8,139 nt of DNA from a virus (Duplodnaviria; Heunggongvirae; Uroviricota; Caudoviricetes). Position 1 is the first letter of the stretch. Each line of letters begins with the position of its first letter. Below the pieces are notes generated by a model. It worked only from the letters and a program-made list of their open reading frames with translations. It had not been told where the DNA came from and did not search any database. The translations under genes were made by a program, and so were the position numbers. The DNA lies in IMG/VR virus record IMGVR_UViG_2703718820_000003, positions 1 to 8,139 of that record; one strand, 5' to 3'. Below are positions 3,952 through 8,139 of the stretch, one piece after another.

Positions 3952-4701
3952 ATGGCAACACCAAATCCCCTGGCGCCGGTAAAAGGTTCCGGCACCACGC
4001 TCTGGGTTTATACCGGAAATGGCGATGCCTGGGCAAACCCGCTGTCAGATGATGACTGGACGCGCCTGGCAAAAATAAAGGATCTGACACCCGGCGAGAT
4101 GACGGCGGAATCTTACGACGATAACTATCTGGATGATGAGGATGCTGACTGGGTATCCACCGGGCAGGGGCAGAAATCCGCCGGTGACACCAGTTTTACG
4201 CTGGCCTGGAAGCCCGGTGAGAAAGGGCAGCGTGATTTGATTGCCTGGTTTGACAGCAGCGAGACCCGGGCCTACAAAATCCGCTTCCCGAACGGCACGG
4301 TGGATGTGTTCCGGGGCTGGGTGAGCGCCATTGGTAAATCCGTGACCGCCAAAGAAGTGATCACCCGCACTGTGAAAATCACCAATATTGGTCGTCCGTC
4401 GCTGGCTGAGGATCGGGGAGAAATCACACCGGTCACCGGTATTACCGTGACGCCACTAACGGGGAATGTGGCAAAAGGTCAGAATATCACCCTGACCGTG
4501 GCCGTTCAGCCGGAAGGCGCAACGGATAAAACGTTCCGCGCAACCTCAGCGAATCAGAATTTCGCCACCATTACCGTGAAGGGGAACACGATCACCGTGA
4601 AAGGTGTTGCGGCAGGTAAAGCGCAGATCCCTGTTGTCACCGGCAATGGTGAGTTTGCGGCGGTGGCGGAGATCACCGTCACGGATGGCGCTGCGGGCTG
4701 A
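3952..4701 (+). CDS. V: Major tail tube protein V with C-terminal Ig-like (Big_2-type) domain
   Basis: 249 aa. The N-terminal ~155 aa ([68 protein letters not shown]) is near-identical in pattern to lambda gpV. The C-terminal ~90 aa (..[33 protein letters not shown]) is the Ig-like domain. GAGGA RBS at 3943-3947. Confidence 0.93.
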
Positions 4702-4716
4702 GGGGGGAGATAAAGC

Positions 4717-5139
4717 ATGTTTCTGAAAACAGAACAATTTGAATATAACGGGGTGTCCGTCACGCTGTCGGAGCTGTCTGCGCTGCAGCGGTTTGATTAT
4801 ATGAAGTTTGTTTCAGACGCAGCACAACAGGAGACAACGGAGCATGATGCCGTGCACATTAACCAGCGATATCTGGAAACGGCATCCCTGCTTGTGGCGA
4901 TGTCGCTATGGCATTCCCATTCCCTCAAAGGCACTCTGGCCTCTCCGGAGACAGAGATGCAGCAGATCCGCCGTGAAGTGATGCTGGGATGGCCTGCTGA
5001 TGCACTGAATCAGGCAACGAACCGGGTGCTTTATCTTTCAGGTATGCTGGATAACCGGCACGATGCCGATCCTGAACCAGCCGGGAAAGCAGAAGCGACT
5101 GAGCCGGTAACATCAAAAAAGCATTCGAAGGCGAGCTGA
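4717..5139 (+). CDS. G: Tail assembly chaperone G
   Basis: 140 aa, MFLKTEQFEYNGVSVTLSELSALQR.. matches the lambda gpG N-terminus. G-rich RBS at 4702-4709; stop TGA 5137-5139. Confidence 0.9.
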   Translation: MFLKTEQFEYNGVSVTLSELSALQRFDYMKFVSDAAQQETTEHDAVHINQRYLETASLLVAMSLWHSHSLKGTLASPETEMQQIRREVMLGWPADALNQATNRVLYLSGMLDNRHDADPEPAGKAEATEPVTSKKHSKAS

Positions 5140-5474
5140 ACTTTGTCCTGAAACTGGCGCGTGAGATGGGGAGAGCCGACTGGCGCGCCATGCTTGCCGG
5201 GATGACATCCACCGAATATGCCGACTGGCGACATTTTTACTGCACGCATTATTTTCAGGATACCCAGCTGGATATGCATTTTTCCGGGCTGACGTACGCC
5301 GTACTCAGCCTGTTTTTTTGCGATCCGGATATGCATCCGGCGGATTTCAGCCTGTTCGCTCCGGAGGCAGAGGAAGGGCAGGCAGAGACGCCGGACGAAA
5401 ATGATGTACTGATGCAGAAGGCGGCGGGCCTCGCCGGTGGAGTCCGTTTCGGGGAGGAGGGAAGGAGGTTGTGA
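4717..5474 (+). CDS. T: Tail assembly protein G-T fusion via programmed -1 ribosomal frameshift (join 4717..5121, 5121..5474)
   Basis: The T frame is open only from 5103 (TGA at 5100-5102) and overlaps the G frame across the slippery heptamer. After a -1 slip it reads ..KKAFEGELNFVLKLAREMGRADWRAMLAGMTSTEYADWRHFY.. to TGA 5472-5474. The ORF-track Met at 5166 has no SD, and lambda T is known to be made only as G-T. Confidence 0.8.
5115..5121 (+). other. -1 frameshift slippery heptamer A_AAA_AAG for G-T
   Basis: In the G frame the codons are tcA AAA AAG (5113-5121), an X_XXY_YYZ heptamer in correct phase, 5 codons before the G stop. After slippage the T frame continues AAA AAA GCA. Confidence 0.75.
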
Positions 5475-5517: not shown

Positions 5518-8139
5518 ATGGCAGGTAATTTTGCCGATCTGACAGCCGTGCTGACACTGGATTCTGCCCGTTTTTCTGAAGAGGCAGCGCGGGTAAAAAA
5601 AGAGCTGGGTGAAACCAGTGCGCTTGCTGATTTGATGTCCGGGAAAGTCAGTCAGTCTTTCAGAAAACAGGCTGATGCTGCTGAGCAGAGTCTGAGCCGA
5701 CAGGCGCTGGCTGCACAAAAAGCCGGGATATCAGTCGGACAGTATAAGGCTGCCATGCGCACACTGCCCGCACAGTTCACGGATATTGTCACTCAGCTTG
5801 CCGGTGGTCAGAATCCCTTCCTTATCATGCTGCAGCAGGGGGGGCAGATCAGCGATTCATTCGGTGGACCGCTCAGCCTGCTTACCCTGCTGAAGGAGGA
5901 ACTTCTCGGGATCAGGGATGCCTCTGAATCATCAGAGGATTCGCTGTCAGATACGGCAAATGCACTGGCTGAAAATGCCCGGAATGCCGGTGAACTGGGA
6001 CGATTTATGTCGGTGGCCCGTGTGGCGGCAGGTGGCGGGGTTGCCGTACTGGCCGCGCTTGCTGCCGCTGCCTGGCAGGCAGAGCAGGCTGACCGGGCCT
6101 TGTTGCGTTCACTGACCCTGACCGGAGGGGCGGCTGCCACCACAACGGCAGAATTGTGGAAAATGGCCGGGGTGATCAGCGATGAAGCCGGTGGTGGTAT
6201 CAGACAGGCGGCAGAAAATCTGGCCCGTCTGGCAGAAAGCGGGAAATATACCGCCGGGCAGCTACGGATCATGGGGGAAACCTCTCAGAGATGGCTGCAG
6301 ACGGTGGGGGACGATGCCGGGAAGGTGGAAAAAGCCTTTGAAGGGATTGCAGCTGATCCGGTGAAGGCGCTGGCCTCCCTGAATCAGCAGTATAACTTCC
6401 TGAGCGTTTCCCAGTTACGCCATATTGATGAGCTTGAGCGCACGAAAGGTAAACAGGCTGCGGTAACGGAGGCGATGTCCCTGTTTGCGGATGTCATGAA
6501 TGCACGTCTGGAGCAACTTGATAAAGCGGCCACGCCGGTGGAAAAAATCTGGGACGATGTTAAAACCTGGACTTCTGACGCATGGGCATGGATAGGTGAT
6601 CATACACTGGGGGCACTCAGTCTGATCACTGACGTGGTGGCCGGAACCGTTGAACAGGTGAAGCTGCTGCTTGTGCAGGGGGATCTGGCGCTGGCTGAAT
6701 TTATTCAGTCAGCCTGGGAAACGACAAAGAATGTGCCCGGCGTTGGTGCGTTGTTTGGTGAACTGGCAGAAGAGAACCGCGTATTTATTGAGAAAACAAA
6801 ACGCGATGAACTGGCGCTGAGAAAATCCATTGCGGAACGGGATGCGCGTATACGCCAGGGGGAAATGGGGTACATCAACCGTTCGCGTGCAACAGGCGTC
6901 AGCAAAGGTCCGGGGCAGCAGGAAGCCGTCAGCCGTCTGGCTGAAGAGCTGACAGGTAAAAAGCATACATCACCGAAAACGCGCTCTGCCGGGGAGAGGG
7001 AAGAGGAGCAGGCAAGAGAGGCTCTGCTTGCCCTTGAAGCTGAGCTCAGGACGCTGGAAAAACACAGCGGTGCGAATGAGAAAATCAGCCGGCAGCGCCG
7101 TGATTTATGGAAGGCGGAAAGTCAGTATGCGGTCCTGAAAGAGGCTGCCACGAAACGACAGTTATCCGGGCAGGAAAAATCCCTGCTGGCCCATGAGAAA
7201 GAGACGCTGGAGTACAAACGCCAGCTGGCTGAGCTGGGCGACAAGGTTGAATACCAGAAACGGCTGAATGAGCTGGCACAGCAGGCGGCACGGTTTGAAG
7301 AGCAGCAGAGCGCGAAGCAGGCCGCCATCAGCGCAAAAGCCCGTGGTCTCACTGACCGTCAGGCTCAGCGGGAGTCTGAAGAGCAGCGTCTTCGTGACGT
7401 GTATGGCGATAATCCGCAGGCGCTGGCCCGGGTCACCGGGGCACTGAAACAGACATGGGCGGATGAAGACATGCTGCGCGGTGACTGGCTGGCCGGGCTG
7501 AAGTCCGGCTGGGGGGAGTGGGCGGAAAGTGCGACGGACAGTTTTTCGCAGGTTAAAAGTGCTGCCACGCAGACCTTTGATGGTATTGCACAGAATATGG
7601 CGGCGATGCTGACCGGTGCAGAGGCAGACTGGCGGGGATTCACCCGTTCGGTGCTGTCCATGATGACAGAAATCCTGCTTAAACAGGCCATGGTGGGCAT
7701 TGTCGGGCGTATCGGCAGCGCCATTGGCGGTGCTTTCGGTGGTGGTGCATCTGCTTCCTCGGGGACGGCCATTGAGGCTGCGGCGGCGAACTTCCATTTC
7801 GCGACCGGAGGATTTACGGGGACGGGCGGCAAATATGAGCCTGCGGGGATAGTTCACCGCGGGGAGTTTGTTTTCACGAAAGAGGCAACCAGCCGGATAG
7901 GTGTGGGGAATCTTTACCGCCTGATGCGCGGCTATGCGGAAGGGGGGTATGTGGGTGGTGCCGGAAGTCCGGCGCAGATGCGGCGGGCGGAAGGTATTAA
8001 TTTTAATCAGAACAATCACGTGGTGATTCAGAACGACGGTATCAACGGACAGGCGGGGCCGCAGCTGATGAAGGCGGTGTATGACATGGCCCGCAAGGGG
8101 GCGCAGGATGAGCTCCGGCTGCAGTTGCGTGATGGCGGT
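5518..8139 (+). CDS. H: Tail tape measure protein H (3' end outside window)
   Basis: Open for 874 codons to the window edge. The N-terminus (..EQSLSRQALAAQKAGISVGQYKAAMRTLPAQFTDIVTQLAGGQNPFLIMLQQGGQISDSFGG) and the C-terminal ~350 aa (..LLALEAELRTLEKHSGANEKISRQRRDLWKAESQYAVLKEAA.. to ..NNHVVIQNDGINGQAGPQLMKAVYDMARKGAQDELRLQLRDGG) closely match lambda gpH as recalled. The middle ~300 aa are divergent. AGGAGG at 5503-5508. Confidence 0.93.
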   Translation, partial: MAGNFADLTAVLTLDSARFSEEAARVKKELGETSALADLMSGKVSQSFRKQADAAEQSLSRQALAAQKAGISVGQYKAAMRTLPAQFTDIVTQLAGGQNPFLIMLQQGGQISDSFGGPLSLLTLLKEELLGIRDASESSEDSLSDTANALAENARNAGELGRFMSVARVAAGGGVAVLAALAAAAWQAEQADRALLRSLTLTGGAAATTTAELWKMAGVISDEAGGGIRQAAENLARLAESGKYTAGQLRIMGETSQRWLQTVGDDAGKVEKAFEGIAADPVKALASLNQQYNFLSVSQLRHIDELERTKGKQAAVTEAMSLFADVMNARLEQLDKAATPVEKIWDDVKTWTSDAWAWIGDHTLGALSLITDVVAGTVEQVKLLLVQGDLALAEFIQSAWETTKNVPGVGALFGELAEENRVFIEKTKRDELALRKSIAERDARIRQGEMGYINRSRATGVSKGPGQQEAVSRLAEELTGKKHTSPKTRSAGEREEEQAREALLALEAELRTLEKHSGANEKISRQRRDLWKAESQYAVLKEAATKRQLSGQEKSLLAHEKETLEYKRQLAELGDKVEYQKRLNELAQQAARFEEQQSAKQAAISAKARGLTDRQAQRESEEQRLRDVYGDNPQALARVTGALKQTWADEDMLRGDWLAGLKSGWGEWAESATDSFSQVKSAATQTFDGIAQNMAAMLTGAEADWRGFTRSVLSMMTEILLKQAMVGIVGRIGSAIGGAFGGGASASSGTAIEAAAANFHFATGGFTGTGGKYEPAGIVHRGEFVFTKEATSRIGVGNLYRLMRGYAEGGYVGGAGSPAQMRRAEGINFNQNNHVVIQNDGINGQAGPQLMKAVYDMARKGAQDELRLQLRDGG

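Follow-up and report, generated by a model that had tools for sequence, protein, structure and literature searches.

A probable lambda-style −1 ribosomal frameshift at A_AAA_AAG in the G-T tail chaperone genes of a lambdoid E. coli phage module

How is the T protein made from a lambdoid tail module in which T lies in a different reading frame from G and is annotated as a gene of its own? We addressed this question in a window of 8,139 nucleotides, the whole stretch of viral DNA analyzed here, for which an initial annotation had proposed that ribosomes shift by −1 from G into T at the heptamer A_AAA_AAG rather than at the G_GGA_AAG of lambda. In lambda itself, the site at positions 10109 to 10115 is the experimentally established G-T shift site (Levin et al. 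1993; Xu et al. 2013), and tail assembly depends on a G:G-T ratio of about 30:1 (Levin 1993; Xu 2013, 2014), as related in PMC5009743. The same paper, citing Xu et al. (2004), describes the G-T frameshift as conserved across long-tailed phages and its slip sequences as variable.

The window carries the tail module of an E. coli phage or prophage that is lambdoid and of the Stx-phage type. Its identity is 99.1 to 99.3% to several Stx2a-converting phages and phage 1720a-02 and 97.7% to VT1-Sakai; a prophage of E. coli FORC_069 matches it at 99.8%. Of 5,426 complete E. coli genomes, 2,364 contain related copies. The same module occurs in phage ASU11, which was obtained by mitomycin C induction. 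Genes of the matching Stx phages and E. coli prophages are annotated as homologues of lambda G, T, and H, and the gene upstream of G is annotated as V in VT1-Sakai. The gene order is V-G-T-H, with G and T located between the tail tube and tape measure genes (Table 1). G matched the equivalog model TIGR01674 (phage_lambda_G) with 119.9 bits against a cut-off of 74.45, and the T segment read after the proposed slip matched the equivalog model TIGR01715 (phage_lam_T) with 174.4 bits through its residues 5 to 114, covering profile positions 1 to 110 of 111. Judged by sequence, both proteins are genuinely homologous to their lambda namesakes.

Table 1. Features of the G-T region and its neighbors, in window coordinates
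Feature	Position	Strand	Basis or remark
Major tail tube protein V homologue, upstream of G	3952..4701	+	Pfam Phage_TTP_12 1.4e-66, plus Big_2
G tail assembly chaperone, zero-frame product of 140 aa	4717..5139	+	PF06894 8.5e-35; TIGR01674; SD −11.7 kcal/mol
GGGAAAG, out-of-phase decoy	5083..5089	+	Phase; position before T-frame stop
TGA closing the −1 (T) frame upstream of the slip	5100..5102	+	Missing in 5 loci of the same lineage
Slippery heptamer A_AAA_AAG, inferred −1 ribosomal frameshift site	5115..5121	+	In phase; position homologous to lambda G_GGA_AAG
T segment, −1 frame after the slip: 117 codons + TGA 5472-5474	5121..5474	+	TIGR01715; PF06223 2.9e-12
Candidate downstream hairpin, weak	5130..5198	+	Outer stem 5130-5136/5192-5198, inner stem 5155-5161/5184-5190
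G stop codon, five codons past the heptamer as in lambda	5137..5139	+	
ATG, annotated start of stand-alone T; probably an internal Met codon	5166..5168	+	Weak anti-SD pairing; Phe in relatives
Tape measure protein H homologue, runs off the window	5518..8139	+	TMP_2 1.8e-45; Tape_meas_lam_C 8.2e-21; SD −11.6 kcal/mol

We looked into the geometry of the two frames with a frame check of the window, which placed G at 4717 to 5139 with its TGA at the end and reproduced exactly every coordinate proposed for the end of G, the T-frame stop, the heptamer, and the GGGAAAG upstream of it. Relative to G, T is read in the −1 frame. The TGA at 5100, in frame with the ATG at 5166, closes that frame, which is then open from 5103 to 5474 and overlaps the G frame for 37 nt (12.3 codons). 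Within G the AAAAAAG word is phased A_AAA_AAG, its codons being AAA (5116-5118) and AAG (5119-5121). The claim that this was the only in-phase slippery heptamer of the overlap proved to be true of the entire G ORF, where no other heptamer has the in-phase form X_XXY_YYZ. A −1 shift after AAG would yield a product of 252 aa with the junction ...TSKK-AFEGELNF..., the size and junction peptide that had been predicted. The AAAAAAG word is not enriched in the window (3 copies, with 1.25 expected), and the window's genes contain five in-phase X_XXY_YYZ heptamers per 2,510 codons; over the 11 phased positions of the overlap, the chance expectation for an in-phase heptamer is 0.022.

We also considered GGGAAAG as an alternative site and rejected it. 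Read in the G frame as GGG AAA G, it is not in phase, it precedes the T-frame stop and so is a decoy outside the signal, and it is not conserved, close relatives having GGGAAAA or GGTAAAG. Elsewhere in the window, an in-phase A_AAA_AAA with seven A's is found at 5595 to 5601, 26 codons into the tape measure gene H, and is identical in 16 close relatives; the −1 frame there stops after three codons, and a shift would only abort H.

Next, we compared the slip regions of the window and lambda (J02459). The lambda G_GGA_AAG at 10109 to 10115 aligns with the window's A_AAA_AAG, and the distance from the heptamer to the G stop is five codons in both: lambda reads ...TCT GCG GGA AAG TGT TCG ACG GTG AGC TGA, and the window reads ...ACA TCA AAA AAG CAT TCG AAG GCG AGC TGA. 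Similarity in the T frame begins directly after the heptamer (AFEGELNFVLKLAREMGR in the window and VFDGELSFALKLAREMGR in lambda). The proposal that this phage keeps the G/G-T recoding strategy with a heptamer other than lambda's is borne out, as A_AAA_AAG sits at the position of G_GGA_AAG. Heptamers other than lambda's are, however, already well documented at G-T sites.

To define the family, we combined two scans of viral contigs with one of genomes, which gave 191 loci with a locatable site. The slip site was G_GAA_AAG in 83 loci, G_GGA_AAG in 69, A_AAA_AAG in 38, and G_GGA_AAA in one. Heptamer positions 4 to 7 were AAAG in 190 of the 191 loci, and base 1 equaled base 2 in every one, a match to be expected if re-pairing in the P site after a −1 shift is selected for. 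Within the window's own lineage, A_AAA_AAG was invariant (38/38 loci), always with exactly six A's, while nearby bases varied. The survey is in effect a small natural experiment, with three interchangeable heptamers at one homologous site that have A_AAG in common.

The frame arrangement was equally consistent across the family. Homologous phages with G and T in one frame had been named beforehand as evidence that would speak against the frameshift, and this arrangement was found in none of the 191 related loci. The G stop lay five codons past the heptamer in 161 loci, one codon past it in 29, and 13 codons past it in one. In relatives, the open T frame reached back 3 to 29 codons from the slip, giving overlaps of about 10 to 35 codons, and the TGA at 5100 was absent from five loci of the window lineage. 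The overlap of the window had been described as extremely short; its length of about 12 codons is exact, but in view of these relatives it is neither unusual nor conserved, and hence not distinctive.

The 83 more distant relatives with G_GAA_AAG (L101-L104, L108-L109, and L117-L196) comprise Kluyvera, Atlantibacter, and Entomohabitans prophages and many viral contigs, and carry this heptamer at the position homologous to 5115-5121. G_GAA_AAG is one substitution away from the lambda heptamer and two from that of the window, and it is non-canonical with respect to X_XXY_YYZ, in that the post-shift P-site tRNA-Glu would face GGA. The codon preceding it is CCG, CTG, GCG, or GTG, that is, codons for four amino acids that all end in G. 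The occurrence of G after four different preceding codons suggests that base 1 of this heptamer is under selection.

Two further observations came out of the survey. One locus (L057) is a mosaic that has the G end and the G_GGA_AAG of the common E. coli prophage type and is of the window type downstream of the heptamer, a make-up that points to a recombination junction at or near the slip site. In addition, loci L088-L093 and L095-L100 carry a lambda-type G-T on contigs assigned to unrelated genera (Neobacillus, Oceanobacillus, Pseudomonas, Kitasatospora, Shewanella, Chromatium, and others). These loci match the query with identical identity and E-value, those with enough flank have lambda's exact slip-site context, and coverage is near 1 for many of the contigs whose title states it; most likely, they are lambda control DNA contaminating the assemblies.

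With the proposed shift supported by lambda homology, frame geometry, and a conserved site, we think it very probable, on this comparative evidence, that an ordinary lambda-style −1 ribosomal frameshift yields a G-T tail assembly chaperone here. Most ribosomes translating G would terminate at the TGA at 5137 and release the 140-aa chaperone G. A small fraction would slip back by 1 nt with tRNA-Lys in both the P site (AAA 5116-5118) and the A site (AAG 5119-5121); the two tRNAs would shift simultaneously on A_AAA_AAG and re-pair with AAA AAA, after which reading would resume in the T frame at GCA (5121-5123) and end at the TGA at 5472-5474 to give the 252-aa G-T. If assembly proceeds as in lambda, H, the tape measure protein, would be coated by many copies of G and few of G-T; the T part would recruit the tube protein V, and both G and G-T would be absent from the virion. 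We infer the slippage, its low efficiency, and the role in assembly from lambda and from published reporter work.

T could instead be made alone from the ATG at 5166, perhaps by reinitiation of ribosomes that have terminated at the G stop, in which case the heptamer would be incidental. This ATG is present 27 nt past the G stop and is used by all public annotations, and the 102-aa T that starts from it is recorded on 778 contigs in a collection of about 15 billion proteins, although that number reflects gene callers and not experiments. Against this, the ATG has no SD: its anti-SD pairing of −2.3 kcal/mol is below the median of the window's ATGs and weaker than 77% of them, compared with −11.7 kcal/mol for G and −11.6 kcal/mol for H. 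The residue homologous to its Met is Phe in 36 of 56 unique relatives. Moreover, conservation extends over the 15 T-frame codons that separate the slip from the ATG, with E5, F8, L12, A13, and E15 invariant, and the same stretch is variable in the G frame, which stops after one codon in 29 loci. The match to TIGR01715 likewise starts 11 codons upstream of the ATG, and the lambda T domain works as part of G-T (PMC5009743). We regard independent translation of T as very unlikely. The suspicion that the stand-alone T ORF (5166..5474) is a misleading call was well placed: starting T at 5166 is probably wrong and would truncate it by 15 conserved codons. The absence of initiation signals for T is established here, as are the frames, their phase, the homology, and the conservation of the site.

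This bears on how the locus is annotated. G and T are annotated separately in every record that we inspected (VT1-Sakai, ASU11, Stx2_14040, 1720a-02, and three PGAP-annotated chromosomes), and the old lambda record J02459 also lists T separately, with its start at 10115. No joined G-T entry was found among the records and protein entries inspected, and the collection of about 15 billion proteins, in which the 140-aa G is recorded on 865 contigs, does not contain the exact 252-aa fusion. The window is a further member of a well-known recoding class, missed by public annotations, and its site raises no new question on frameshifting or tail assembly. Its value lies mainly in annotation, where the 252-aa G-T is omitted and T is given as a separate 102-aa protein, a listing that affects thousands of E. 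coli genomes and Stx-phage records. Annotating T separately drops 15 residues of the T domain and hides an assembly protein that, by analogy with lambda, would be essential.

A shift at the level of RNA was also weighed, in which RNA polymerase would slip on the A6 run and add one A, and standard translation of the altered message would give G-T. The protein sequence would be identical to that from a −1 ribosomal shift, and poly-A runs are known transcriptional slippage sites (PMC3711429). Transcriptional realignment is, however, cited for runs of more than seven A's (PMC3711429), and the window's run has six. Relatives with G_GGA_AAG or G_GAA_AAG reach the same outcome with just 3 to 4 A's, so that the conserved feature is tRNA re-pairing and not the homopolymer, and in dnaX and IS elements ribosomes are proven to shift at A_AAA_AAG (PMC4066793, PMC3711429). 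Slippage by the polymerase is in our judgment highly improbable.

That the locus is a decaying remnant, with T unexpressed in a prophage and the heptamer there by chance, is scarcely credible: many such E. coli prophages are defective, and in FORC_069, the closest chromosome match, PGAP marks the T homologue as incomplete and the V gene as frameshifted, but the window's T segment covers all but one position of TIGR01715, short T forms of 110 to 118 aa occur in several lineages, the inducible phage ASU11 has the same module, the heptamer is held constant in 38 loci amid varying bases, and chance would place only 0.022 in-phase heptamers in the overlap.

We also compared the lengths of T. The post-slip T is shorter in the window lineage (117 residues) than in lambda (144) or in other E. 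coli prophages (about 150; coordinates compared: window 5121-5474; lambda, L005, 1216-1650; FORC_069 prophage, L002, 1267-1569). The T of the window lineage is without the C-terminal extension that carries a second GGVRY motif, and there is no overlap between T and H in this lineage. The relatives from Kluyvera, Atlantibacter, and Entomohabitans also have short T segments (110 to 118 residues), and these fit TIGR01715 with its 111 positions. Because short forms in several lineages fit the model, the "missing C-terminus" label that PGAP attaches to the T of FORC_069 is probably an artefact. The V homologue of the FORC_069 prophage (L002, 55-802) is a frameshifted pseudogene according to PGAP and is intact in the window.

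Published E. coli reporter data (PMC4066793, Table S3) give nearly equal efficiencies for A_AAA_AAG and G_GGA_AAG. With no stimulator, A_AAA_AAG shifted at 0.291% and G_GGA_AAG at 0.277%; the respective values were 4.26% and 3.80% when the IS911 stimulators were present and 39% and 43% when the IS3 pseudoknot was. Given this near equality, exchanging one heptamer for the other would probably be close to neutral for the G:G-T ratio. No SD-like stimulator was found 6 to 17 nt upstream of the heptamer, where GCGACTGAGCCGGTAACATC contains no GGAG, GAGG, or AGGA.

Downstream of the heptamer, a two-level hairpin appeared in the folds of both the window and lambda, with an outer stem starting 8 nt past the heptamer. 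We evaluated it by folding single sequences and an alignment, by counting pairs, by examining 57 unique contexts, and against a null of synonymous recodings. The 7-bp outer stem was 100% paired in 11 diverse sequences and included one compensatory change from G:C to A:U, which may be a single event. The excess in stability was marginal (z-scores of −2.0 and −1.6 against dinucleotide shuffles and of −1.6 and −1.9 against synonymous recodings). The outer stem contains a G:G mismatch throughout one clade of 13 unique contexts (34 loci), and three of its pairs are lost in another group. In the gpG cluster of PMC4066793 (Table S8), a hairpin is reported in 51%, with no excess stability. These folds make the hairpin a suggestive candidate for a stimulator, short of significance. 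It is doubtful that it is a so far unrecognised stimulator of the lambda G-T family that, with A_AAG, sets the G:G-T ratio. If it were, the hairpin would lift the roughly 0.3% slippage of the bare heptamer to the few per cent needed, and exchange of the P-site codon (GGA, GAA, or AAA) would be tolerated, the ratio being set by A_AAG and the hairpin.

Finally, we compared the window with known systems. A_AAA_AAG is listed as a "true" case in another family of E. coli prophage tail chaperones, represented by ECs1801 (PMC4066793, Table S4). ECs1801 (Sakai Sp9, HK97-like, cluster A_AAA_AAG_25) has the same heptamer near the end of a chaperone gene that lies, as in the window, between the tube and tape measure genes, and a related GeneTack cluster was measured at 6 to 7% (PMC3711429). 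The ECs1801 heptamer stands immediately before the stop codon, whereas that of the window stands five codons before the G stop, and blastp between ECs1801 and the window's G gave no significant similarity (E = 1.3 over 39 residues). We considered whether ECs1801 could count as an earlier report of the window's gene and concluded that it could not; it belongs to an unrelated HK97-like chaperone family and is a precedent for the heptamer alone. The literature searched, with Xu et al. (2004) and Xu et al. (2013) outside its scope, does not name an A_AAA_AAG site for a lineage of the lambda G family.

A_AAA_AAG is the classic E. coli shift heptamer, used by dnaX and by many IS elements. The cassettes of dnaX and of the IS3 family (IS911 and IS3) have it in common with the window, as well as the same reliance on the single E. 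coli tRNA-Lys (PMC5009743, PMC4066793). Their stimulators are strong and well defined, consisting of an SD upstream and a stem-loop or pseudoknot downstream, and shifting in them can attain about 50%; the window, in contrast, has no SD-like element and a weak candidate hairpin, and its expected level would be a few per cent. The remaining system is lambda G-T itself. The two fusions are 56% identical, with equivalog models and gene order in common, and in both T lies in the −1 frame and the A-site tetramer is A_AAG. The P-site codon is GGA (Gly) in lambda and AAA (Lys) in the window, and the base before it has changed in step (GCG/GGA in lambda, TCA/AAA in the window). Unlike lambda, with its 144 post-slip residues, the window has a T of 117 that is missing lambda's C-terminal extension, and its T and H do not overlap.
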